Source: a virus
Taxonomy: Duplodnaviria; Heunggongvirae; Uroviricota; Caudoviricetes
Strand: one strand, 5' to 3'
IMG/VR virus record: IMGVR_UViG_2718217885_000004
Span: 1-36,487 of that record
Length of the DNA: 36,487 nucleotides
Part shown: positions 3,897-27,850 of the stretch, piece after piece
How the letters are laid out: every line of letters begins with the position of its first letter
How positions within the stretch are numbered: position 1 is the stretch's first letter
Notes under the pieces: model-generated
The model's input: the letters and a program-made list of their open reading frames with translations, nothing else
Database searches by the model: none
Told to the model about the DNA's origin: nothing
Position numbers and translations under genes: made by a program

Positions 3897-4393
3897 CAGT
3901 GATGACGCTCAATCTCGTCGAAAAACAGCCAGCAGCTATGCGCCGGATAATTGGTAAGCATCTTGCCGTCCCTCGCTGGCAGGATACATGTGATTATTAT
4001 AATCAGATGATGGAGCGCGAACGGCTAACAGTTTGCTTTCATGCGCAGTTAAAACAACGTCACGCAACGATGCGTTTTGAAGAAATGAACGACGTCGAAC
4101 GTGAACGGCTGGTTTGTGCAATTGATGAACTGCGTGGGGCATTCTCAAAACGCCGTCAGGTTGGCGCAAGTGAGTATGCATATATTAGTTTTTTAACCGT
4201 CAGTCAGCGCCGTACTTTATTTATGCACGCACGACTGACAGAAAAAGAATTTAACCAGCCATACTGGCGAATTAATGAAGAATCATGTTACTGGCGTGAT
4301 GCTTTATTCCGTGCATTACGTGAATTATTCAGCCTGTTTGAGTATGCGCCGACAATTCTGACGTCGGTAAAACCAGAGCAATATCTGCATTAA
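3893..4393 (+). CDS. B: Replication protein B-like, 166 aa
   Basis: Position after cox and 166-aa length match P2 B. RBS ggaggg upstream. Confidence 0.65.
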   Translation: MTVMTLNLVEKQPAAMRRIIGKHLAVPRWQDTCDYYNQMMERERLTVCFHAQLKQRHATMRFEEMNDVERERLVCAIDELRGAFSKRRQVGASEYAYISFLTVSQRRTLFMHARLTEKEFNQPYWRINEESCYWRDALFRALRELFSLFEYAPTILTSVKPEQYLH

Positions 4394-4456
4394 GTAATTA
4401 ACCAGAGTTTTTAACGCACTTAATTGTGCGGGGCTTCTTTTTGCCTGGAGAAAGTC

Positions 4457-4681
4457 ATGCATACAGTTTCTGAAAATCAGTGCGGTATATACGCATTACT
4501 GCTGCAACAGGCCAGAACCGAAGCACAGGCCGACGCTGCGACGCGCTTTTCTTCTCATCTTGACGCCATGATTCGCCACATCACAAAGGCGGAGTTATCC
4601 CGCGTGGAGATAGTCGAGCTGCTCAGTCAGGAGTCGGAAAAATTTCACAATATCGGATTGTCTCGCGGGGAGGTACTTTGA
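4457..4681 (+). CDS. Small early protein, 74 aa (P2 orf80-like)
   Basis: ATG at 4457 with ggagaaag RBS. Translationally coupled to the next ORF (ATGA overlap). Confidence 0.5.
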
Positions 4682-4983
4682 TGTCTTGTTCTCGTTCGGT
4701 TGTATTACTGAATAACGCCTTAAAAATCGCCGTTATGAAAAATGGTGATTTGTCTCTTATTCAACTTGGTATTGATAAAGAGAAGCGCGAAATAACTGAA
4801 TCTGTTATCGCAATTTATCAGAGTGAATTAAACCTCCTGTCTGATGTGGTCAATTTACTTGTTAAACGCGCTGTATTCCACAAGCAAGTTTCCTCAGTGG
4901 ATGAACTGACAAAATTAATGACAGAACTCGCCAGTTATTGCGCTGATGAATTTAAGAAGCTGAACGACAAAAGGAGCTGGTAA
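4681..4983 (+). CDS. Small early protein, 100 aa (P2 orf81-like)
   Basis: ATG at 4681 with ggggagg RBS. Overlaps neighbouring ORFs on both sides. Confidence 0.5.
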   Translation: MSCSRSVVLLNNALKIAVMKNGDLSLIQLGIDKEKREITESVIAIYQSELNLLSDVVNLLVKRAVFHKQVSSVDELTKLMTELASYCADEFKKLNDKRSW

Positions 4984-5207
4984 TGCCGGACAACGTAGAT
5001 TTTATTCAGGAACAACAGGCTGAATTACTGGAGCGCCAGATTAACGCGGCAAGGGTAAAACATTGCTGTGCTTCTGCGCTGGTTTGCGAAGAGTGTGACG
5101 CGCCAATACCTGCTGCCCGTCGTGCGGCTTATCCGTCAGCCACGCGTTGTGTTTCCTGTCAGTCAGTCTTTGAAGCAAAAAACAAACATTACCGGAGAAC
5201 GGCATGA
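4983..5207 (+). CDS. TraR/DksA-type C4 zinc-finger protein, 74 aa (P2 orf82-like)
   Basis: CEEC-x17-CVSC cysteine pattern. Sits in the coupled early operon. Confidence 0.6.
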   Translation: MPDNVDFIQEQQAELLERQINAARVKHCCASALVCEECDAPIPAARRAAYPSATRCVSCQSVFEAKNKHYRRTA

Positions 5208-5479
5208 GTATTCGTATTGAAATTGGCGAACGTTATGTCGTTACCAGTGACAGCTTTCAGTTTATTCTCCACGAGAAAAAGAGAGCGGAAAGCGGTAAAA
5301 ACGCCGGTCAGGAATGGCTGGCGGTGGTTGGTTATTACCCGAAATTAAGCCAGCTCGTTTCCGGCCTGATGCATCACGATATTCTGACCGGAAGCGCAAA
5401 GTCTTTTGCTGATTTAAACGCGCAGGTTGAGCAACTCAGCAGGCGTTGTTCAGAGGCTTTTGGCTCATATGGCCGTTAA
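5204..5479 (+). CDS. Small early protein, 91 aa (P2 orf83-like)
   Basis: ATG at 5204 with ggagaa RBS. Overlaps the A start. Confidence 0.5.
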   Translation: MSIRIEIGERYVVTSDSFQFILHEKKRAESGKNAGQEWLAVVGYYPKLSQLVSGLMHHDILTGSAKSFADLNAQVEQLSRRCSEAFGSYGR

Positions 5480-7742
5480 AGCCTCCGGGCGTTTTGTCCC
5501 TCCGTCAGCATTTGCCGCAGGCACCGGTAAGACGTTTGCCGGTGCTTATGCATGGAACGCGCCACGCGAGGCTGTCGGGCGCGAAAGACCCCTTACACGT
5601 GATGAGATGCGTCAGGTGCAAGGTGTTTTATCCACGATTAACCGCCTGCCTTACTTTTTGCGCTCGCTGTTTACTTCACGCTATGACTACATCCGGCGCA
5701 ATAAAAGCCCGGTGCACGGGTTTTATTTCCTCACATCCACTTTTCAGCGTCGTTTATGGCCGCGCATTGAGCGTGTGAATCAGCGCCATGAAATGAACAC
5801 CGACGCGTCGTTGCTGTTTCTGGCAGAGCGCGACCAGTATGCGCGTCTGCCGGGGATGAATGACAAGGAGCTGAAAAAGTTTGCCGCCCGTATCTCATCG
5901 CAGCTTTTCATGATGTATGAGGAACTCTGCGATGCCTGGGTGGATGCGCATGGCGAAAAAGAATCGCTGTTTACGGATGAGGCGCAGGATCATCTGTATG
6001 GTCATGTTGCTGGCGCTGCACGTGCTTTCAATATTTCCCCGCTCTACTGGAAAAAATACCGTAAAGGACAGATAACCACGAGGCAGGCATATTCTGCCAT
6101 TGCCCGTCTGTTTAACGATGAGTGGTGGACTCATCAGCTTAAAGGCCAGCGTATGCGCTGGCATGAGGCGTTACTGATTGCTGTCGGGGAGGTGAATAAA
6201 GACCGTTCTCCTTATGCCAGTAAACATGCCATTCGTGATGTACGTGCACGCCGCCAGGCAAATCTGGAATTTCTTAAATCGTGTGACCTTGAAAACAGGG
6301 AAACCGGCGAGCGCATCGACCTTATCAGTAAGGTGATGGGCAGTATTTCTAATCCTGAAATTCGCCGGATGGAGCTGATGAACACCATTGCCGGTATTGA
6401 GCGTTACGCCGCCGCAGAGGGTGATGTGGGGATGTTTATCACGCTGACCGCGCCGTCAAAGTATCACCCGACACGTCAGGTCGGAAAAGGCGAAAGTAAA
6501 ACCGTTCAGCTTAATCACGGCTGGAACGATGAGGCATTTAATCCAAAGGATGCGCAGCGTTATCTCTGCCGTATCTGGAGCCTGATGCGGACGGCATTCA
6601 AGGATAATGATTTACAGGTCTACGGTTTGCGTGTCGTTGAGCCACACCACGACGGAACGCCGCACTGGCATATGATGCTTTTTTGTAATCCACGCCAGCG
6701 TAACCAGATTATCGAAATCATGCGTCGCTATGCGCTCAAAGAGGATGGTGACGAAAGAGGCGCTGCGCGAAACCGTTTTCAGGCAAAACACCTTAACCGG
6801 GGCGGTGCTGCGGGATATATCGCGAAATACATCTCAAAAAACATCGACGGCTATGCACTGGATGGTCAGCTCGATAACGATACTGGCAGGCCGCTGAAAG
6901 ATACTGCCGCGGCTGTTACCGCATGGGCGTCAACGTGGCGCATTCCGCAATTTAAAACGGTTGGCCTGCCGACAATGGGGGCTTACCGTGAACTACGCAA
7001 ATTGCCTCGCGGCGTCAGCATTGCTGATGAGTTTGACGAACGCGTCGAGGCTGCACGCGCCGCCGCAGACAGTGGTGATTTTGCGTTGTATATCAGCGCG
7101 CAGGGTGGGGCAAATGTCCCGCGCGATTGTCAGACTGTCAGGGTCGCCCGTAGCCCGTCGGATGACGTTAACGAGTATGAGGAAGAAGTCGAGAGAGTGG
7201 TCGGCATTTACGCGCCGCATCTCGGCGCGCGTCATATTCATATCACCAGAACGACGGACTGGCGCATTGTGCCGAAAGTTCCGGTCGTTGAGCCTTTGAC
7301 TTTAAAAAGCGGCATCGCCGCGCCTCGGAGTCCTGTCAATAACTGTGGAAAGCTCACCGGTGGTGATACTTCGTTACCGGCTCCCACGCCTTCTGAGCAC
7401 GCCGCAGCAGTGCTTAATCTGGTTGATGACGGTGTTATCGAATGGAATGACCCGGAGGTCGTGAGGGCGCTCAGAAGCGCATTAAAACACGGCCTGAGAA
7501 GACCAAACCGTCAGCAAAGAAACGGAAGCCCGTTAAAACCGCATGAAATAGCGCCATCGGCCAGACTTACCCGGTCGGAACGAATGCAAATTACCCGTAT
7601 CCGCGTTGACCTTGCTCAGAACGGTATCAGGCCGCAGCGATGGGAGCTTGAGGCGCTGGCGCGTGGGGCAACCGTAAATTATGACGGGAAAAAATTCACG
7701 TATCCGATTGCTGAAGAGTGGTCGGGATTTTCCTCAAACTAA
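5469..7742 (+). CDS. A: Rolling-circle replication initiator, P2 gpA-like (HUH endonuclease)
   Basis: HUH motif in GTPHWHMMLF and tyrosine motif YIAKYISK. Likely ATG at 5469 (MAVKASG); the track ORF starts at an upstream TTG at 5427. Confidence 0.85.
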   Translation: MAVKASGRFVPPSAFAAGTGKTFAGAYAWNAPREAVGRERPLTRDEMRQVQGVLSTINRLPYFLRSLFTSRYDYIRRNKSPVHGFYFLTSTFQRRLWPRIERVNQRHEMNTDASLLFLAERDQYARLPGMNDKELKKFAARISSQLFMMYEELCDAWVDAHGEKESLFTDEAQDHLYGHVAGAARAFNISPLYWKKYRKGQITTRQAYSAIARLFNDEWWTHQLKGQRMRWHEALLIAVGEVNKDRSPYASKHAIRDVRARRQANLEFLKSCDLENRETGERIDLISKVMGSISNPEIRRMELMNTIAGIERYAAAEGDVGMFITLTAPSKYHPTRQVGKGESKTVQLNHGWNDEAFNPKDAQRYLCRIWSLMRTAFKDNDLQVYGLRVVEPHHDGTPHWHMMLFCNPRQRNQIIEIMRRYALKEDGDERGAARNRFQAKHLNRGGAAGYIAKYISKNIDGYALDGQLDNDTGRPLKDTAAAVTAWASTWRIPQFKTVGLPTMGAYRELRKLPRGVSIADEFDERVEAARAAADSGDFALYISAQGGANVPRDCQTVRVARSPSDDVNEYEEEVERVVGIYAPHLGARHIHITRTTDWRIVPKVPVVEPLTLKSGIAAPRSPVNNCGKLTGGDTSLPAPTPSEHAAAVLNLVDDGVIEWNDPEVVRALRSALKHGLRRPNRQQRNGSPLKPHEIAPSARLTRSERMQITRIRVDLAQNGIRPQRWELEALARGATVNYDGKKFTYPIAEEWSGFSSN

Positions 7743-7914
7743 TAATGATGTTTGACAAAGAGATGTTGATGAGACTAAAAATTTTATTTGTCTGTATAAC
7801 CATTCGGTTAGAGTACAATAGTTCCGAGTGATAGGAATACAAATAATGACTAAGTTTTCAATATGCGATTGTTATGGGTTGAATTAAAGGTAAATAACTA
7901 TGTTAAATAATATA

Positions 7915-7947
7915 GGGCAAGAGGGGGTTCTTGCCCTTTGTTTATTT
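7915..7947. terminator. Candidate bidirectional intrinsic terminator between convergent A operon and SIR2 cargo gene
   Basis: Hairpin gggcaaga / tcttgccc with loop ggggt, followed by tttgtttattt on plus and an A/T-rich run on minus. Confidence 0.5.
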
Positions 7948-10540
7948 AAGCGGCGATTTCAATGTTGCTTTTATATTTTAAGAGGGCGTTTTTGGGAACT
8001 GCTGGCCAGGCTGAGTATCTATAATAGTTCATATAATCTTTCTCTATCAGTGTTTTTAGCTGTTTGTTAGCTTGAACTTCATCACCAAGTAAAAAGAATG
8101 CACACATGGCCGTAGCCCCTTTTGAATTGTTATGTGCTAAAACTGAATTTATCTCATTCTTTTTAATGTCTTGCCCTTCTTTTTTCTTGGCAACTTCTCT
8201 ATTGATTATTAAAACATCTTTTTCCCTGTAATCTTTAATTTTTTCAAGGTTTTCATTAGCGATTTTAATTGTTTCTTTATAGTTTCCTGCAAGAAGATTG
8301 GTATAAGATTTTCCTAAGATATAATCACTAAACCCGTAACCTTTTTCATAAGCTTCATCAAGAAGAACTATCGCTTTATCATAATCGCCGTTTAAAGATG
8401 CAATATCAGATTTTAATTTTAAAATGGTGATTTCTGATTTGTTTCTTGGCAGGCTATCAATAAACTCCTCTGCCAATTTGATGTTGTTTTTATCAATTAG
8501 TAATATGTCTACAATACTGTTTGTATGATTATTTTTCCACGGGCAGTTCATGGCTTCTTTGACTAATTCAATACCAGCTTTGATGTCCCTGTTGCAGCCT
8601 ATCTCATATCGAGCTTTAAATATAATGAAAGGAGCAATTCTTGCAATGTCGCTCTCTTCTTCATATTTATCAATAAAGCCTTTCATCAGGTTGGGAGTGT
8701 TTTCATCGAAGTCTGTTTCAAATAAAGATAGATGCAGTTGTGTTAAATATTTTAATATGTTTCTTTTTTTATTTTTTGATGATGTTTTGTAAGCGTTGGA
8801 TAATGTATCTATGCATAATAATGTATCTTCTTTCTTTTGCAATGCGCAGGTGAAATCAGTATATAACGACAAATATGTATCGTGAGTAGGGTTGACCTCT
8901 TTTATTTTGTCAAGAAGTTCTTGTATTAATTTATTACAATCTTTCTTATCATGGCTTGATTGATGTTTTGTCTTTATTGCGTCATATTTTATTCTCCATG
9001 CAATATTATCCAGATCACTGCTTTGGAGTAAGCTTTTATCAATTAAATCATGTATTTCATCAAAGGTTATTAATTCTTCATCATTATTTTCTAGATGTAG
9101 AATAGCAATTCTGCTTAAATGATTCTTAAGATTTATGCTATATGGGAATTTTTCAAGCAATCCCTTAAGGTAATGTATTTTTGCCTTTAGATCTGTGAAT
9201 ATGTTTGCCCTTGAAAGGGCGTAATTTATATTAAATTCATCAAGAGCTATAAGATTATCACTAATTTCTAATGCTGACTTTGTGTCTTTTTGTTCTTCTT
9301 TTATTTCAATTAGCCTACGCAGATATTTAGACTTTATATTGTCACTATCAGCGTTATTGATTAATTCATTCAGTTTTGACTCTGCGTTTAAATAATTTTT
9401 ATTTCTAATGAGGTTGTCAATGTATAACAAATTCTTAAAATCTTCTTCGGGGATCTTTTGATCGTCTAAATCACTTTGGGATAGCTCGTTTATTAATGAC
9501 GATATGTCATGTGTTAGAGTGTGTTTTTTTAATTTTGAGAGATCAGATTTGATAATGCCATTTTTAGATAAGTTGTACTCATCTGTTATAAAGTTTTGGA
9601 TCATCATCTCTCTTTTTGTGGATTTTTGATTCCCTCCAAAAGAGAGTGCGCAGCCTAATTCTAGGGCTAGTTCTGCCATCAATTCATCAAAACCTTCTAT
9701 TTCTACCCAATAAACTTTATCTTGACCTAGAAGCCTAATAAGTTCTGGTGGGATGGAGTCATTTTTTCTAACGCACCAGTATACTCCATTTCTTAGGTAA
9801 TCGTCCTGTTTTAATAAATGTTTTAAAACATCCATGATAGAGCTGTCATTGCCAGCATAACCAACAAAAATAATCCCGTATTCTTTAGTGAATTCAGTTA
9901 GTTTTTCACGAGTGTTACCTTCTAATGACTCGGTTTCTTTTAAAGAGCTTTTTATGCTATCAAATAAATAATCACCATGTAATTTTATTATTTTTGGCCT
10001 TGAAGAAGTAATTGAGACGCCTTTAATTGATGAATCATGTGCACATAATAATGGTCTGTCAGAAGAAAATTGATAAAATGCTTCATTTATTAAATCGTCA
10101 AAATTTGTTGTGAAGACAGTATCAAAAAACTTTGATTCAAATAGTTCAACGAGATAAGCATATCCAATTGAAGGTAATTTTTTGTCTACTTGAAGCTCAA
10201 CAAATCTTCTGCGTTGAGATGGAAGATCAAATTTCTTTTCAAAAAGAGATGAGTATTCATTGTTTGGGTCGTACCAGACTGGATGGTTTTTGGATAGCCA
10301 TTTTTTAGCTTCTTCGGCATCGACATATTCTTGATTGGATAGTCTTGTGTATATCTCTTCTCTCCATTTCGCTACTAACTCTTGACCAGTTTTTATTCCA
10401 GATGTAACGGATGCGCCAGCACCAAGAAAAAGTGAATAGTTAGGTGATGTACCTGATTTGATTTTTATATAATCAGCTAAATCTTTAATGGTTCTTTTTT
10501 TGGCAACCAGTTGTTCCTTGGTAGTATCACGATCAGACAT
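7946..10540 (-). CDS. SIR2-like (sirtuin-fold NADase) domain protein with long helical C-terminal region, 864 aa; candidate defense-associated sirtuin
   Basis: N-terminal roughly 300 aa carry four SIR2-like hallmarks in order: LFLGAGAS, TTNFDDL, KIIKLHGD, FVGYAGNDSS. C-terminal roughly 550 aa are K/N/D/L-rich with no Walker motif. GGAGGG RBS upstream of ATG at 10538-10540. Very AT-rich. Occupies the A-to-cos variable locus. Confidence 0.8.
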   Translation of the reverse strand: MSDRDTTKEQLVAKKRTIKDLADYIKIKSGTSPNYSLFLGAGASVTSGIKTGQELVAKWREEIYTRLSNQEYVDAEEAKKWLSKNHPVWYDPNNEYSSLFEKKFDLPSQRRRFVELQVDKKLPSIGYAYLVELFESKFFDTVFTTNFDDLINEAFYQFSSDRPLLCAHDSSIKGVSITSSRPKIIKLHGDYLFDSIKSSLKETESLEGNTREKLTEFTKEYGIIFVGYAGNDSSIMDVLKHLLKQDDYLRNGVYWCVRKNDSIPPELIRLLGQDKVYWVEIEGFDELMAELALELGCALSFGGNQKSTKREMMIQNFITDEYNLSKNGIIKSDLSKLKKHTLTHDISSLINELSQSDLDDQKIPEEDFKNLLYIDNLIRNKNYLNAESKLNELINNADSDNIKSKYLRRLIEIKEEQKDTKSALEISDNLIALDEFNINYALSRANIFTDLKAKIHYLKGLLEKFPYSINLKNHLSRIAILHLENNDEELITFDEIHDLIDKSLLQSSDLDNIAWRIKYDAIKTKHQSSHDKKDCNKLIQELLDKIKEVNPTHDTYLSLYTDFTCALQKKEDTLLCIDTLSNAYKTSSKNKKRNILKYLTQLHLSLFETDFDENTPNLMKGFIDKYEEESDIARIAPFIIFKARYEIGCNRDIKAGIELVKEAMNCPWKNNHTNSIVDILLIDKNNIKLAEEFIDSLPRNKSEITILKLKSDIASLNGDYDKAIVLLDEAYEKGYGFSDYILGKSYTNLLAGNYKETIKIANENLEKIKDYREKDVLIINREVAKKKEGQDIKKNEINSVLAHNNSKGATAMCAFFLLGDEVQANKQLKTLIEKDYMNYYRYSAWPAVPKNALLKYKSNIEIAA

Positions 10541-19344: not shown

Positions 19345-19774
19345 TGCCGTCACGGTGCTGAAAACCAGTCCCGAGATGCTGCGGATATTCGTGGATAACG
19401 GGAGTATTGCCTCCACACTGGCGACGTCGCTGTCATTTGAAAAGCGTTACACGCTCAATGTCATTGTGACCGACTTTACCGGTGATTTTGACCTGCTCAT
19501 CGTGCCGGTGCTGGCGTGGCTGCGGGAAAATCAGCCCGACATCATGACCACGGACGCAGGCCAGAAAAAGGGCTTCACGTTTTATGCAGACATCAACAAT
19601 GACAGCAGCTTTGATATCAGCATCAGCCTGATGCTGACCGAGCGCACGCTGGTCAGTGAGGTTGACGGCGCACTGCATGTGAAGAATATCCCGGAACCTC
19701 CGCCGCCGGAGCCGGTCACCCGCCCGATGGAGCTGTATATCAATGGCGAACTGGTGAGCAAGTGGGATGAATGA
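19307..19774 (+). CDS. R: Tail completion protein R-like, 155 aa
   Basis: Length and position match P2 R. Confidence 0.8.
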   Translation: MLKPDSLRRALTDAVTVLKTSPEMLRIFVDNGSIASTLATSLSFEKRYTLNVIVTDFTGDFDLLIVPVLAWLRENQPDIMTTDAGQKKGFTFYADINNDSSFDISISLMLTERTLVSEVDGALHVKNIPEPPPPEPVTRPMELYINGELVSKWDE

Positions 19775-20216
19775 GTTTAAGCGTTTTGAAGACCGGCTGA
19801 CCGGACTGATTGAGTCGCTGTCACCGTCAGGGCGTCGGCGACTGGCGGTAGATATTGCGAAGAAACTGCGCCAGCGCCAGCAGCAGCGAATTAAATTACA
19901 AAAAGGCCCGGATGGTACGCCGTATGTACCGAGAAAAAACCAACCAGTGCGAAATAAGAAAGGCCGGATAAAGCGGGAAATGTTTGTGAAATTACGCACT
20001 AACCGGTTTATGAAAGCAACAGCTAGCGAGAGTGCGGCGGTGGTGGAGTTTACTGGTAAGGTTGAGTGTATTGCGAGAGTACATCAATTTGGGTTGGCTG
20101 ATAAGCCTAGTTACAACAGTAAGGCTGTGGTTTATCCTGTTCGTATACTTATGGGAATCTCAGAGCGTGATACGAAATTTGTTGAAGAAGTTATTATTCG
20201 CTACCTATCTCATTAG
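19767..20216 (+). CDS. S: Tail completion protein S-like, 149 aa, with AT-rich 3' end
   Basis: Position after R. The last roughly 200 nt are markedly lower in GC than the rest of the gene. Confidence 0.75.
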   Translation: MNEFKRFEDRLTGLIESLSPSGRRRLAVDIAKKLRQRQQQRIKLQKGPDGTPYVPRKNQPVRNKKGRIKREMFVKLRTNRFMKATASESAAVVEFTGKVECIARVHQFGLADKPSYNSKAVVYPVRILMGISERDTKFVEEVIIRYLSH

Positions 20217-20266
20217 GGACGATGAAAATATAGTTTCATCAGCTATATTCTAGTATATAAAATACT

Positions 20267-20291
20267 AAGGCTACACTAGCCGTGTAGCCTT
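20267..20291. terminator. Candidate bidirectional terminator hairpin between S and the convergent ATPase cargo gene
   Basis: Perfect 10-bp stem aaggctacac / gtgtagcctt with loop tagcc. A/T-rich on both sides but no strong U-tract. Confidence 0.4.
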
Positions 20292-20316
20292 GGTATATGT
20301 TTGGGATATTATATAA

Positions 20317-21561
20317 CTAAATCCAGCGGAGGTAGAATAGTAAGTAAGGATCTCTGATGTCTAATACATCGCTTTCTTGATCCCACTCGATAATACTGCT
20401 ATTTGCAGCATCGTTGGCAATAGCAGTTGAGTGCTGACATGCACTGGTTATACTAGAACCGCTTGGGCTATCGCCATGACATAACGAGGTCACTCGAGAT
20501 ACTAAGTCAGAATAACGAAATGTCAGCGTCGGAGGATTAGAAGCAATGGCTTTTAATAAAAAGACATAAACATCGCCTTGCCAGCCATCTTTTGATATAT
20601 ATGATTTTCTATCAGAACCACGCACTTTAGGTCCTTCGCGCATTTTATCCACAATCGTGCTGTAATCTGCTGACTGAAGTGTACGTTTGCACACTCTTTG
20701 CAATGTGGCAATATCTTTTTGATATTTTATTGAAGTATCAGAAGTCTCTCTGACATTCATTTCAAAACAAGAGTTTAAGCATAAATATTGCATTAGTTGT
20801 GGTGAGCCTGCGGACTCTTTTACTAACTCACTTATAACTTCATCAGAGGCATCTATATTGAGTAGTTTGAATCCTTTCTGGGCAATAATTTTTAAGGTTG
20901 ATTCATCCCAATAATCAAAATCAATATTAAATATCCGACCTCGTAAGTCAGAGTTACCCCGAAGAACATCATCAGAATGATATGGCACTGATGCACAAAT
21001 AAATTTGCAGCCATTAGCTATGGCATCTTTTATTTGTCGTGATAGTTCGGCTTGAGCTTCTTTAGCAATATAGTGAAAATCATCGATAAAGATAACATAA
21101 TCTGTGTTTGCGATTTCTCGCTTCATTAGTTGAAAGAGATCTATCGCAAATGATTCTGAGGTTTGATCTGCTGTACTATAACCAGCGGATGCAGACCCTT
21201 TAAGACTACCTTTTGCTAAAATTACACCAGCTTGGGCAGATAATTCTCCTGTACCTGAAAATGATGAGGTGCCAGTTTTACTTTGAACTTGGGTTACTGG
21301 TACACCAAGTATGTCGAAAACGCGCTTCCATAAATCATTAGCAGATTGAACCCCTGCTCCAGTTACTTCGATTAGCCTCTGGGTTCCAAGTACTTTCTTA
21401 ACAAAGACAGTTTTTCCTGATTTTGATGGGCCAGAGATAGAAATCAGCATGGTGCCCATCTCAAGTGTATCGATTAACTGTTGCTGTTTGGATACTAGGT
21501 GATCCTCAACCAGTGTGTGGTTGGGATAACCGCCTGGGATAAAAACCTCTGTCGCCTTCAT
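20317..21561 (-). CDS. P-loop NTPase of uncertain family, 414 aa; cargo gene between S and V
   Basis: Walker A GPSKSGKT and Walker B-like YVIFIDDFHY. Antisense to the late operon. Lower GC than neighbours. No adjacent partner ORF. Confidence 0.7.
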   Translation of the reverse strand: MKATEVFIPGGYPNHTLVEDHLVSKQQQLIDTLEMGTMLISISGPSKSGKTVFVKKVLGTQRLIEVTGAGVQSANDLWKRVFDILGVPVTQVQSKTGTSSFSGTGELSAQAGVILAKGSLKGSASAGYSTADQTSESFAIDLFQLMKREIANTDYVIFIDDFHYIAKEAQAELSRQIKDAIANGCKFICASVPYHSDDVLRGNSDLRGRIFNIDFDYWDESTLKIIAQKGFKLLNIDASDEVISELVKESAGSPQLMQYLCLNSCFEMNVRETSDTSIKYQKDIATLQRVCKRTLQSADYSTIVDKMREGPKVRGSDRKSYISKDGWQGDVYVFLLKAIASNPPTLTFRYSDLVSRVTSLCHGDSPSGSSITSACQHSTAIANDAANSSIIEWDQESDVLDIRDPYLLFYLRWI

Positions 21562-21602
21562 ATATCAACGCCAACATTATTAATGGTATGCCAATTTTAC
21601 GT

Positions 21603-21620
21603 TGTAAGAGGATCAATACA
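21603..21620. promoter_or_regulatory. Candidate Ogr-dependent late promoter element upstream of V (perfect TGT-N12-ACA dyad)
   Basis: tgt aagaggatcaat aca, centred about 56 bp upstream of the V start codon. Dyad consensus recalled from P2 late promoters. Confidence 0.45.
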
Positions 21621-21667
21621 AGTTCCATTTATTGCCTGTGAGTGCTGAAAAATTCAATATTTGAAAA

Positions 21668-22303
21668 ATGAATATAAATCACTCATTACAAGAGCTTGCG
21701 CGTGCACTGCGCAACATGATCCGCACCGGTATTATTGTCGAAACCGACCTTAACGCCGGTCGCTGCCGTGTGCAGACCGGCGGCATGTGCACTGACTGGC
21801 TTCAGTGGCTGACCCATCGTGCTGGACGTTCACGCACATGGTGGGCACCTTCGGTGGGGGAACAGGTGCTGATTCTGGCCGTGGGCGGTGAACTCGACAC
21901 GGCGTTCGTTCTGCCGGGGATTTATTCCGGCGATAACCCCGCGCCGTCTGCGTCGGCGGATGCCCTGCATATCCGTTTCCCTGACGGGGCGGTGATTGAG
22001 TATGAACCTGAAACCAGCGCACTCACGGTAAGCGGAATTAAAACGGCCAGCGTGACGGCTTCTGATTCTGTTACTGCCACGGTGCCGGTGGTCATGGTGA
22101 AAGCATCAACCCGCATCACCCTGGACACACCGGAGGTGGTCTGCACCAACAGGCTGATTACCGGCACGCTGGAAGTGCAGAAGGGCGGGACGATGCGCGG
22201 CAACATTGAACACACCGGCGGTGAACTCTCATCAAACGGTAAGGTATTGCATACCCATAAACACCCCGGCGACAGCGGCGGCACAACCGGGAGTCCTCTA
22301 TGA
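21668..22303 (+). CDS. V: Baseplate spike protein, P2 gpV-like, 211 aa
   Basis: Length and position match P2 V. C-terminal His-rich apex (HTHKHPGDSGG). Confidence 0.85.
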   Translation: MNINHSLQELARALRNMIRTGIIVETDLNAGRCRVQTGGMCTDWLQWLTHRAGRSRTWWAPSVGEQVLILAVGGELDTAFVLPGIYSGDNPAPSASADALHIRFPDGAVIEYEPETSALTVSGIKTASVTASDSVTATVPVVMVKASTRITLDTPEVVCTNRLITGTLEVQKGGTMRGNIEHTGGELSSNGKVLHTHKHPGDSGGTTGSPL

Positions 22304-24093: not shown

Positions 24094-26388
24094 ATGAGCA
24101 CAAAATTCAGAACCGTTATCACCACTGCCGGTGCAGCAAAGCTGGCAGCGGCAACCGCACCGGGAGGGCGGAAGGTCAACATTACCACGATGGCCGTCGG
24201 GGATGGCGGTGGTAAATTGCCTGTCCCGGATGCCGGACAGACCGGGCTTATCCACGAAGTCTGGCGACATGCGCTGAACAAAATCAGCCAGGACAAACGA
24301 AACAGTAATTATATTATCGCAGAGCTGGTTATTCCGCCGGAGGTGGGCGGTTTCTGGATGCGTGAACTTGGCCTGTACGATGATGCGGGAACGCTAATTG
24401 CCGTGGCGAACATGGCCGAAAGTTATAAGCCAGCCCTTGCCGAAGGCTCAGGGCGTTCGCAGACCTGCCGCATGGTCATCATCGTCAGCAGTGTGGCCTC
24501 AGTGGAGCTGACCATTGACACCACAACGGTGATGGCAACGCAGGATTACGTTGATGACAAAATTGCAGAACATGAACAGTCACGACGTCACCCTGACGCC
24601 TCGCTGACCGCAAAAGGTTTTACTCAGTTAAGCAGTGCGACCAACAGCACGTCTGAAACACTGGCTGCAACGCCGAAAGCGGTAAAGACCGCCTATGACC
24701 TTGCTAACGGGAAATATACCGCGCAGGATGCCACCACCGCGCGAAAAGGCCTTGTTCAGCTCAGTAGTGCGACTAACAGCACGTCTGAAACGCTCGCCGC
24801 AACGCCGAAAGCGGTAAAGGCCGCGTATGACCTTGCTAACGGGAAATATACCGCACAGGACGCCACCACAGCGCGAAAAGGTCTTGTCCAGCTCAGTAGC
24901 GTCACCAACAGCGATTCTGAAACGCTTGCGGCAACACCAAAGGCGGTTAAGACAGCGTATGACCTTGCTAACGGGAAATACACTGCACAGGATGCCACCA
25001 CGGCGCGAAAAGGTCTTGTCCAGCTCAGTAGCGCCACCAACAGTGATTCTGAAACCCTCGCGGCAACGCCAAAAGCAGTGAAGTCTGCCTATGACAATGC
25101 TGAAAAACGTCTTCAGAAAGATCAGAACGGTGCGGATATTCCGGGAAAGGATACCTTCACGAAAAATATCGGTGCCTGTCGTGCTTATAGCGGCGCTTTG
25201 AGCACTGAAGCCGGAAACTGGACAACCGCTCAGTTTATTGAATGGCTGGATTCCCGTGGTGCATTTAATCATCCGTACTGGATGTGCAAAGGCTCCTGGT
25301 CATATGCAAATAACAAAATCATTACGGATACCGGATGTGGTGATATCCACCTGGCTGGTTGTGTCGTCGAGGTCATGGGAACAAAATCTGCAATCACCAT
25401 CCGAGTGACAACGCCGACAACATCAAGTGGTGGCGGTACAACCAGCGCGCAATTCACTTACATTAATCATGGGGACGGCTACTCCCCCGGCTGGCGTCGT
25501 GACTGGAATCGTCAGGGCGACGCAATGACCGGAACGATTAATCAGGACGGCGGAAGCCAGAATACCTATATGTCTACGGCCTTATGTTCAGGCACCAGAG
25601 GCGGCAAAAAATATCTCAGAAAGTTTCGTGGTGGAGAAGGAGACACTATCTGGCATGAAACAGTACAGGGCGGGGTTGTTCGCTGGGCGACTGGTAATAC
25701 TGATGCTCAGGAAGAATTATCACTCAGCTCCGCTTATGGTCTCCGTTCAAGAGGTGAGATTACATCAAGCAGTGCTAATGGTCTGCGCATTGCTTATGGC
25801 AATTATGGATTCTTTATCAGGAATGATGGCAGCAGCACTTATTTTATGTTGACTAAATCAGGTGACAGATTAGGCACTTATAATAATTTAAGACCACTGA
25901 TTATAAATGATGCCACGGGTGCTGTATCAATGGGGCATGGCCTGAGTGTTACTGGTGATATTGTCTCAAGTACCAAAGTACGTGCCGGTAGCGGGAAAAA
26001 ATTCACGGTCAGCAGCAGTAATACATCCACGAAGGAAGCCGCATTCAATTTGTGGGGAAACTCAAGTCGTCCGGTGGTGGCTGAATTAGGTGATGATGCA
26101 GGCTGGCATTTTTACAGTCAGAGAAATACAGATAACAGCATCACTTTTGCTGTTAACGGTCAGGTATCACCATCTAACTATAGTAATTTTGATTCCCGTT
26201 ATGTACGCGATATCCGGCTTGGGACTCGAGTTGTCCAGACCATGCAGAAAGGGGTGATGTATGAGAAAGCAGGGCACGTAATTACCGGGCTTGGTATTGT
26301 CGGTGAAGTCGATGGTGATGATCCCGCAGTATTCAGACCAATACAAAAATACATCAATGGCACATGGTATAACGTCGCACAGGTGTAA
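24094..26388 (+). CDS. H: Tail fiber protein, P2 gpH-like, 764 aa, with internal tandem repeats
   Basis: Conserved N-terminal part follows I; contains four 44-aa repeats. Longer than the 669 aa I recall for P2 H. Confidence 0.85.
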   Translation: MSTKFRTVITTAGAAKLAAATAPGGRKVNITTMAVGDGGGKLPVPDAGQTGLIHEVWRHALNKISQDKRNSNYIIAELVIPPEVGGFWMRELGLYDDAGTLIAVANMAESYKPALAEGSGRSQTCRMVIIVSSVASVELTIDTTTVMATQDYVDDKIAEHEQSRRHPDASLTAKGFTQLSSATNSTSETLAATPKAVKTAYDLANGKYTAQDATTARKGLVQLSSATNSTSETLAATPKAVKAAYDLANGKYTAQDATTARKGLVQLSSVTNSDSETLAATPKAVKTAYDLANGKYTAQDATTARKGLVQLSSATNSDSETLAATPKAVKSAYDNAEKRLQKDQNGADIPGKDTFTKNIGACRAYSGALSTEAGNWTTAQFIEWLDSRGAFNHPYWMCKGSWSYANNKIITDTGCGDIHLAGCVVEVMGTKSAITIRVTTPTTSSGGGTTSAQFTYINHGDGYSPGWRRDWNRQGDAMTGTINQDGGSQNTYMSTALCSGTRGGKKYLRKFRGGEGDTIWHETVQGGVVRWATGNTDAQEELSLSSAYGLRSRGEITSSSANGLRIAYGNYGFFIRNDGSSTYFMLTKSGDRLGTYNNLRPLIINDATGAVSMGHGLSVTGDIVSSTKVRAGSGKKFTVSSSNTSTKEAAFNLWGNSSRPVVAELGDDAGWHFYSQRNTDNSITFAVNGQVSPSNYSNFDSRYVRDIRLGTRVVQTMQKGVMYEKAGHVITGLGIVGEVDGDDPAVFRPIQKYINGTWYNVAQV
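24607..25095 (+). repeat. In-frame tandem repeat inside H: about 3.7 copies of a 132-bp (44-aa) unit
   Basis: Period of 132 bp measured between unit starts at 24607, 24739, 24871 and 25003. Units are near-identical at protein level with synonymous differences. Confidence 0.85.
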
Positions 26389-27070: not shown

Positions 27071-27850
27071 TTAAAATATCCAACTGATAAATCCACCTGA
27101 ATACTTTTCACTAATTTTGATTGCATAAAGATCATGAAGAGTTATAAATAAATCATTATCTTCTTTGAAAATTAACTCCTCATATTCTGCCATTATCAAA
27201 TTATGCTGTGTTGTTAGTTTAGATATGTTATCTATTTCACTGGCAAGCATGGATTTGTTTACATTGGTGTGTGGATCCATGGCAATATATTTCCGCATCA
27301 ATGGAATTAGTTGATCAGGGTCTATATTTTTTGCATTTTCCTTTGCTTTTTTTTGTCTTTCTGAATAGATGGAGTTAATTGTGTCAGTGTGTTTTTTCGC
27401 CAGTCTCTTAAACTCTGGATATGAACCAGTAACTAATGCAAGCTCTTCGTACTTAAGGAATAAATCGATATTGCATTTTTTTACCGTCATTTCAAGATCT
27501 TCAACTCTTTTTTTTAACTCTTCATTTGTTTTAATAAGAGACATCGGGAGAACTTCATAATGTTGTCCTAATTCTGAATCAGGGCTCATTGCCATATGTA
27601 CTATTTCATTATACATGAGCTGATAAGAAGCAGATAACTCTCCATACTTTAGAAATAGTTCATTATGTGAAGATGAACAAGAACTTTGTAATTTCATCAT
27701 TGGTCTAAAGTAATCCTTTATAAACTCCTCCTGAAGATCTTGGTCTTTTTTGTAGCTCTCTAGGATTCCAGCAAAAAGAAATGACCCTAAAGATATAGAG
27801 ATTATGGATATTAGCAATTGACTAAGGAATGATTGTGTTTCATTACTCAT
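27071..27850 (-). CDS. Membrane-anchored protein of unknown function, 259 aa; cargo gene between G and FI
   Basis: Single N-terminal transmembrane helix (LLISIISISLGSFLFAGIL) followed by a charged helical domain. Very AT-rich. Antisense to the late operons. Confidence 0.65.
   Translation of the reverse strand: MSNETQSFLSQLLISIISISLGSFLFAGILESYKKDQDLQEEFIKDYFRPMMKLQSSCSSSHNELFLKYGELSASYQLMYNEIVHMAMSPDSELGQHYEVLPMSLIKTNEELKKRVEDLEMTVKKCNIDLFLKYEELALVTGSYPEFKRLAKKHTDTINSIYSERQKKAKENAKNIDPDQLIPLMRKYIAMDPHTNVNKSMLASEIDNISKLTTQHNLIMAEYEELIFKEDNDLFITLHDLYAIKISEKYSGGFISWIF

Follow-up and report, generated by a model that had tools for sequence, protein, structure and literature searches.

What is a single AT-rich ATPase gene doing, on the opposite strand, between two tail genes of a P2-like prophage? 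The question is raised by IMG/VR virus record IMGVR_UViG_2718217885_000004 (positions 1 to 36,487; this whole stretch of 36,487 nucleotides (nt) is called the window here), which is a complete P2-like (Peduovirus) prophage of Escherichia coli GB089 with its integration site between yegQ and yegR, and in which an open reading frame (ORF) of 414 amino acids (aa) is found between the tail-completion gene S and the baseplate-spike gene V, antisense to the late genes. In this article, I will discuss the slot that the gene occupies, the predicted fold and relatives of its product, and the roles that may be proposed for it. Moron slots of P2 are a known type of locus, and the protein family has been listed before as a PADLOC candidate; what is new here is the fold assignment for the whole protein, the relationship to a sister family fused to a TIR domain, the apparent selection on the gene independently of the phage, and the definition of an exchanged cassette that includes a linked S allele. 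It is well supported that the gene is a good defence candidate in a known type of locus, and not a new principle; that the ATPase is moron cargo giving the lysogen protection against other phages, whether by defence or by superinfection exclusion, is a proposal to which I would give an even chance.

A moron slot with changing cargo

The prophage sequences on either side of the slot are 96-97% identical to those of P2, L-413C, R18C and many other Peduovirus genomes, and the distance from flank to flank varies: the slot is empty in L-413C (66 bp between S and V), holds the antisense gene orf30 (261 aa) in P2, and holds a gene for a 246-aa hypothetical protein in R18C. A survey of 5,426 complete E. 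coli genomes located 1,853 S-V junctions in 1,596 of them, with the ATPase gene present in 12 of these junctions and about 99% of E. coli P2-like prophages lacking it. When an evenly spaced sample of 60 junction records was typed for cargo, about 37 were empty, 11 were of the orf30 type (plus 3 truncated prophages), 3 were of the R18C type, and one each carried a 359-aa RelA/SpoT-domain gene, a gene for a 347-aa hypothetical protein and the ATPase gene, so that at least five alternative cargoes exist in addition to the empty state. The preliminary description of this locus had regarded the gene as an accessory moron and not as a conserved structural component of P2-like phages, and this is how it turned out: the junction is variable in both occupancy and cargo, most slots are empty, and a structural or virion role is rejected because the gene is absent from P2, L-413C, R18C and nearly all of the E. 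coli prophages surveyed. The S-V (orf30) site is itself one of the three moron regions recognized in P2-like phages (PMC6823313), and a recent survey reports a defence hotspot within the P2 tail genes; the slot is not treated in the iLund4u and Rousset papers, and the main hotspot papers concern other slots.

Among the alternative cargoes, the antisense 359-aa protein in the S-V slot of E. coli strain 317 (NZ_CP023357.1, locus L015, positions 1101-2180) is annotated as a "GTP pyrophosphokinase", has a RelA/SpoT match in Pfam (1.8e-21) and a match to PDC-S33 in PADLOC, and resembles fused toxSAS defence proteins such as CapRel. The ATPase gene, the classical P2 morons (orf30, tin, old and Z/fun) and this CapRel-like cargo are alike in being single AT-rich genes in a variable slot between conserved phage flanks, with orf30 and the CapRel-like gene using the very same slot and most such cargoes lying antisense to the late genes, but none of them has any sequence relationship to the ATPase. 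The Old protein of P2 is an ATPase-nuclease, and tin and fun encode unrelated proteins.

In P2, the O operon ends with S and the V operon begins with V. The region in which the cargo lies is thus a gap between two operons, which explains its tolerance to cargo, and the earlier wording of an insertion within a tail operon was imprecise both in this respect and in that the gene arrived by exchange of a cassette with breakpoints inside S and V. The ORF itself, on the opposite strand between S and V, agrees with the ORF list and with its RefSeq entry (Table 1), and no further ORF of at least 60 aa exists within its limits. Its low GC content (GC), also pointed out at the beginning, is 39.7% overall and 29.9% at third codon positions (GC3), against 58.3% and 63.2% for gene V and about 58% for the flanks. 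Since the AT-rich tract begins already inside gene S, and not at the edge of the ATPase ORF, the exchanged unit is larger than the ORF; homology to all compared phages restarts at position 21689, 21 nt into gene V. The product of S is a mosaic, being identical to P2 gpS over the first ~25 residues, R18C-like up to about residue 125 and unique thereafter, and it differs from the gpS of both P2 and L-413C from about residue 26 on. In four other E. coli carriers, the segment 19767-21688, comprising the variant S and the ATPase gene, is 99.5-99.7% identical, whereas identity is 96-99% for R, V, W and J of the same carriers and the tail-fibre region shows no relationship. Such a near-identical cassette between flanks that have diverged by 1-4% points to the recent spread of a ~1.9-kb unit, by homologous exchange, over diverged E. 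coli backbones.

Is the low GC then itself a sign of recent arrival? P2-like prophages of Serratia and Enterobacter have homologues with 57-75% identity in this slot, likewise antisense, and so do 9 of 28 IMG/VR loci. In every one of these 28 viral loci the ATPase gene is richer in AT than the sequence on either side, and its GC is about 40% in the phage copies from E. coli, Enterobacter, Serratia and Pantoea as compared with 55-62% in the flanks. Recent acquisition is therefore rejected as the explanation, since copies that differ by 25-43% in protein sequence hold to ~40% GC throughout, and low GC is a stable property of the gene. The phage-slot homologues have also diverged to a degree similar to that of the adjoining tail genes. 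A distant P2-related viral contig (L057, positions 4001-5233) carries a homologue with 39% identity on the same strand as, and directly upstream of, a V homologue (45%), which hints that the position before V may be used in more remote phage lineages too.

Several copies of the gene have outlived the phage around them. Three loci of Pantoea septica (L023-L025) and one of Enterobacter (L020) are decayed P2 remnants, flanked by housekeeping genes, in which S is split and V and J are truncated, and the ATPase ORF is intact and full-length in each; an intact ATPase in dead prophages suggests domestication by the host. Between the phage-slot copies, non-synonymous divergence (dN) is 0.18-0.21 and synonymous divergence (dS) is saturated, so that no omega value can be given, and none of the copies contains an internal stop. 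The gene would accordingly seem to be under purifying selection that does not depend on virion production, which favours a host-benefit or defence role.

Predicted fold and conserved motifs

The protein had been introduced as a P-loop ATPase of no assignable family, with Walker A and Walker B-like motifs, a Gly/Ser/Thr-rich linker after the Walker A and no recognizable motif in the C-terminal half, and these statements fared differently. Both Walker motifs are indeed there, and their key residues do not vary within the set of 34 homologues to which all statements on motif and loop conservation in this article refer. In the predicted structure, an alpha-beta-alpha core is followed by a helical lid and a C-terminal winged helix, so that what looked featureless now reads, in the model, as a lid, a basic linker and a winged helix (Table 1), and the whole can be assigned to AAA+ proteins with a core, lid and winged helix like those of Orc1/Cdc6 and the archaeal Walker-type ATPases. 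This predicted likeness is clear, and the core is one that is also common to the STAND immune receptors, although STAND proteins came out of the fold search with lower Z scores than the Orc/Cdc6-type proteins; AfsR was among the fold matches to the winged helix. A conserved stretch, DDV.R.N.DLRGR (aa 197-209), is a candidate for arginine finger or sensor function.

Little of this is visible to profile searches. All Pfam scores are below threshold (AAA_22 at 24.1 bits with a cut-off of 27, AAA_16 at 19.3 with 32.6, and ATPase_2 at 18.2 with 33.2), no Pfam STAND family matches, NCBIfam returned only noise, the PHROGs match is to a family of unknown function, and searching the PDB by sequence, either with the single protein or with the family profile, gave nothing meaningful. 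With the archaeal Walker-type ATPases PAB2304 (PDB 2qen) and SSO1545 (2fna) and with Orc1/Cdc6, sequence identity is only 12-20%, and unlike these proteins the window protein has an extra disordered loop and an acidic winged helix; an origin-binding role is without support. What it shares with STAND/NLR-like proteins such as Avs and bNACHT is, according to the model, the core of nucleotide-binding domain (NBD), helical domain and winged helix, but the N-terminal effector and the C-terminal sensor repeats of those proteins are missing and it is 414 aa long as compared to roughly 1,000-2,000 aa. Neither Pfam nor the fold search revealed an effector domain, and there are no sensor repeats and no sensor domain, as the protein stops at the winged helix with residue 414.

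The supposed linker is really inserted into the ATPase core, where it separates helix 2 from the Walker B strand. Of the residues in this loop, 56% are Ser, Gly, Ala or Thr, and it is predicted to be disordered, with a predicted local distance difference test (pLDDT) score below 50 over aa 93-136. Its length is constant at 53 aa in 34 of 34 sequences and an AKG motif is conserved at its centre; at the same time it is the most variable part of the protein, with a mean pairwise identity of 0.32 versus 0.56-0.75 in the other regions. The dN of the loop is 2-4 times that of the rest of the protein, yet not above dS, and positive selection on the loop is for this reason not supported.

A widespread family and its TIR-fused relatives

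Far from being an orphan, as it was first called, the protein is one of a family whose ~2,200 clusters are spread over the bacterial phyla. A word-indexed search gave 1,710 clusters at 90% identity, the best matches all being full length (414-420 aa) and 54-59% identical, from Aeromonas, Serratia, Acidithiobacillus, Chloroflexi, Pelagicoccus and Desulfuromonas, and an exhaustive profile search with a limit of E = 0.001 gave 2,219 clusters (50% identity), 526 of them at an E of 1e-30 or better. Nearly all of the 150 top-ranking profile relatives are stand-alone proteins of 400-450 aa, and stand-alone chromosomal copies occur in many bacterial phyla; one relative of 630 aa (P0245) has an N-terminal extension with no Pfam match. 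Among defence-specific profiles, the only strong match is to PDC-S59 of PADLOC-DB v2.0.0, a single-gene phage defence candidate of similar length (E = 1.5e-31, 107.9 bits), which is matched by all 34 homologues and to which a distant member of the family (P0160) aligns over profile positions 5-404. No mention of PDC-S59 or of three ATPase protein accessions was found in the searchable literature, and the text of the Nucleic Acids Research paper on P2/P4 does not mention PDC systems.

Some of the relatives carry something more. A distant relative on the Curtobacterium plasmid pTCL (WP_222657429) ends in a C-terminal TIR_2 domain and is flanked by caspase-family and TIR genes, and it represents a TIR-fused sister family of 1,874 clusters, about 490 aa in length and mostly from Actinomycetota. 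Aligning the ATPase family to this TIR-fused family with hhalign gave 99.3% probability and E = 3.6e-20; the 332 aligned columns run from the N-terminal strand to the C-terminal DP.L.FYLR.W motif and take in both Walker motifs, the GS..Q.LC motif of the lid and the basic G.K.R...R..Y loop. The difference is that the TIR-fused proteins carry TIR_2 and do not have the 53-aa loop, while the window protein has the loop and nothing beyond the winged helix. As the module is shared, it would seem that TIR effector proteins elsewhere employ it as their nucleotide switch.

Genomic neighbours of the family are varied. The Acidithiobacillus homologue adjoins a gene for a SIR2-nSTAND protein, an MNT/HepT pair and Tn7-like genes, and the Chloroflexi homologue is surrounded by toxin-antitoxin genes. 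No conserved partner gene accompanies the P2-slot copies. In five marine gammaproteobacterial loci (L006-L010, positions 7004-7906), the ATPase homologue is preceded, at a distance of 95 bp and on the same strand, by a gene for a 300-aa protein; this gene has no Pfam or PADLOC match, is absent from the other contexts and could be a lineage-specific partner.

Does the ATPase protect the lysogen?

The reading as moron cargo that benefits the host by defence draws on the intact ORF in decayed prophages, on purifying selection, on the travel of the cassette together with its S allele and on the defence-gene neighbours found elsewhere, and a further link to defence is that the same prophage has a SIR2-domain gene in its tin/old slot. 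Other observations weigh against it and should be stated with the same clarity. PDC-S59 is itself a candidate defence family only; the alignment to it covers aa 37-296 of the protein and profile positions 37-292 of 428, and with just 60% of the profile aligned the window protein is probably a divergent branch of that family. Neither it nor its homologues match a validated defence family in PADLOC-DB. No effector domain, partner gene or toxin is recognizable at the ATPase gene, and the acidity of the winged helix (pI 4.5) argues against a classical DNA-binding surface. The association with defence islands depends on a handful of loci, and the homologues of Aeromonas and of a marine gammaproteobacterium adjoin housekeeping genes. 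The phage-slot copies form one clade in a neighbour-joining tree without support values, and a promoter scan of the 106 bp upstream found no sigma-70 consensus site on the ATPase strand.

Each of the rival explanations that can be put forward fits fewer observations than the reading as an accessory defence gene. The foremost rival, if a quite unlikely one, is an AAA+ protein that handles DNA for the mobile element itself, for example an Orc1/Cdc6-, MuB- or TnsC-like factor by which DNA would be marked or organized when the cassette or prophage replicates, is partitioned, recombines or chooses a target. This is disfavoured as no transposase, recombinase or origin-like repeat lies beside the gene in the P2 slot, the great majority of E. 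coli P2-like prophages manage without it, most family members stand alone beside unrelated genes, the winged helix is acidic, and the sister family is fused to TIR, an immune/NADase effector rather than a partner in DNA transactions. Next, and also quite improbable, is a benefit to the host that has nothing to do with phages, for example an ATP-dependent transcription regulator or a stress switch acting through the winged helix and carried as lysogenic-conversion cargo. Winged-helix domains and STAND-like ATPases do include transcription regulators (with AfsR among the matches obtained here), the gene is kept in decayed prophages, some chromosomal copies adjoin housekeeping genes, and P2 hotspots are known to hold non-defence cargo such as cytolethal distending toxin; however, no target gene is conserved next to it, its phyletic pattern is patchy and horizontally transferred with the gene AT-rich everywhere, and the PADLOC candidate match, the TIR-fused sister family and the co-occurrence with defence-type genes all point elsewhere.

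A very unlikely proposal is that the protein is an anti-defence decoy, an effector-less copy of an immune nucleotide-binding oligomerization domain (NOD) module which co-assembles with a related host receptor and poisons it to the advantage of the phage or prophage. The module is indeed phage-encoded and homologous to the TIR-fused family minus its effector, but those TIR-fused relatives are mostly from Actinomycetota, whereas P2-like phages have enterobacterial hosts, the gene runs antisense to the late operons instead of being an early gene, it is intact in dead prophages and widespread as a stand-alone chromosomal gene, and the strictly conserved Walker A and B motifs would not be needed by a passive decoy. 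Least probable of all, and hardly to be expected, is a chaperone ATPase that helps tail assembly for the co-travelling gpS allele. The movement of variant S and ATPase gene as a near-identical unit and the inclusion of the 3' end of S in the AT-rich tract would fit such a helper, but linkage of the two is expected from adjacency alone, a very similar S allele in R18C (94.6% DNA identity up to position 20144) has a different gene as its neighbour, the ATPase gene is on the strand opposite to the late operons and intact where S is broken, and most members of the family are in non-phage contexts.

How might the ATPase act, if it is indeed defence cargo? In a lysogen, the gene would be transcribed leftward from its own promoter, antisense to the late genes, with transcription ending at the hairpin described below, and the protein would rest as an inactive nucleotide-bound monomer until some component of the infecting phage sets off nucleotide exchange and oligomerization. 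The hypervariable Ser/Gly/Thr loop might do the sensing, or else the conserved basic loop or the winged helix; between these last two, the basic loop, being kept in both sister families, would be the better candidate for contact with nucleic acid or nucleotide. Since no effector is attached, the output is taken to be the assembly itself, which could coat or clamp DNA in the manner of Orc1/Cdc6, MuB and TnsC and so block the replication or packaging of the invader, or could alternatively work as a trap or platform by which another protein is sequestered or recruited. The strongest version of this scheme, that a bare NOD module is a complete anti-phage system in which the Ser/Gly/Thr loop senses the phage and ATP-driven assembly (for example a filament or ring on the invading DNA, or a trap for a phage protein) does the rest, I consider unlikely; if true, it would be a minimal defence mechanism that is new for STAND- or ORC-like proteins.

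Should the gene protect against phages, a widespread single-gene system, with its ~2,200 clusters at 50% identity in many phyla, would join the catalogue of defences, and the little-studied S-V (orf30) slot would become a third source of defence genes beside tin/old and Z/fun. It would also pose the mechanistic question of how an effector-less, NOD-type ATP switch stops a phage, for which the TIR-fused sister family provides the natural comparison.

Transcription signals and coordinates

The hairpin that the preliminary description had placed on the S side of the gene is real, with a 10-bp stem, a 5-nt loop, an RNA folding free energy of -19.6 kcal/mol and a z score of -4.55; it resembles a terminator of the ATPase gene, as the sequence after it on the ATPase strand is rich in U. 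On the other side, a promoter had been predicted for V, and this part of the picture is mixed: an exact TGT-N12-ACA dyad, of the type seen in Ogr-dependent late promoters, is present at 21603-21620 with its centre 57 nt before the V ATG, and an equivalent dyad is found at the same position in an Enterobacter phage with a homologous ATPase gene, but the window contains five such dyads, which is not above chance expectation, so that a V promoter at this dyad is no more than plausible. From the arrangement of the genes, the promoter of the ATPase gene must presumably also lie within the divergent intergenic region, where a weak candidate, TTGTAT-16-TAAAAT, was spotted by eye. An Rfam search of positions 19700-21800 found no known RNA family in the cassette.

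Table 1. Features of the S-V region, with positions in the window
Feature	Position	Strand	Details
Tail-completion gene S, variant allele	19767-20216	+	Last 150 nt at 38.7% GC; co-travels with the ATPase gene
Exchanged cassette, defined by loss of DNA homology	19992-21688		L-413C homology ends at 19991, R18C homology at 20144
Intrinsic-terminator-like hairpin	20267-20291	-	25 nt past the ATPase stop, 51 nt past the S stop
Coding sequence, 414-aa AAA+ ATPase	20317-21561	-	ATG start, TAG stop; WP_000648253.1, RefSeq name "ATP-binding protein"
C-terminal winged helix (aa 330-414), predicted	20320-20574	-	Acidic, pI 4.5; wing with invariant EWD...D.DIRDPY..F..RW
Basic linker (aa 271-329)	20575-20751	-	pI 9.7; invariant loop GPK.RG..R, also kept in the TIR-fused sister family
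Helical lid (aa 216-270), fold model		-	AGSPQ motif
Walker B (aa 156-164)	21070-21096	-	VIFIDDFHY; D160, D161, F162, H163 and Y164 invariant
Ser/Gly/Ala/Thr-rich insertion (aa 88-140)	21142-21300	-	53 aa, in the ATPase core
Walker A (aa 44-51)	21409-21432	-	GPSKSGKT; invariant
AAA+ core (NBD, aa 1-215), fold model		-	
Divergent intergenic region	21562-21667		106 bp, ATPase start to V start; contains the TGT-N12-ACA dyad
Baseplate spike gene V	21668-22303	+	Opens the next late operon; anchors the slot on the right

Other features of the prophage

The S-V slot is not the only one in use, since the tin/old and Z/fun slots are each filled by a single AT-rich gene as well, and all three classical P2 moron slots are thus occupied in this prophage. 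The tin/old slot, between the portal gene Q and the replication gene A, holds one gene on the minus strand (7946-10540, GC 32%) for an 864-aa "SIR2 family protein", of which only the N-terminal SIR2 domain (aa 33-293) matches PADLOC, to Argonaute-associated SIR2 (E = 2e-59) and to PDC-S65, the remaining ~570 aa having no PADLOC match. The Z/fun slot, between the tail-fibre assembly gene G and the sheath gene FI, holds one antisense gene on the minus strand (27071-27850, GC 32%) for a 259-aa hypothetical protein with no match in PADLOC. Finally, the tail-fibre gene H (24094-26388) encodes four tandem repeats of 44 aa, with the motif ATPKAVK at aa 192, 236, 280 and 324.

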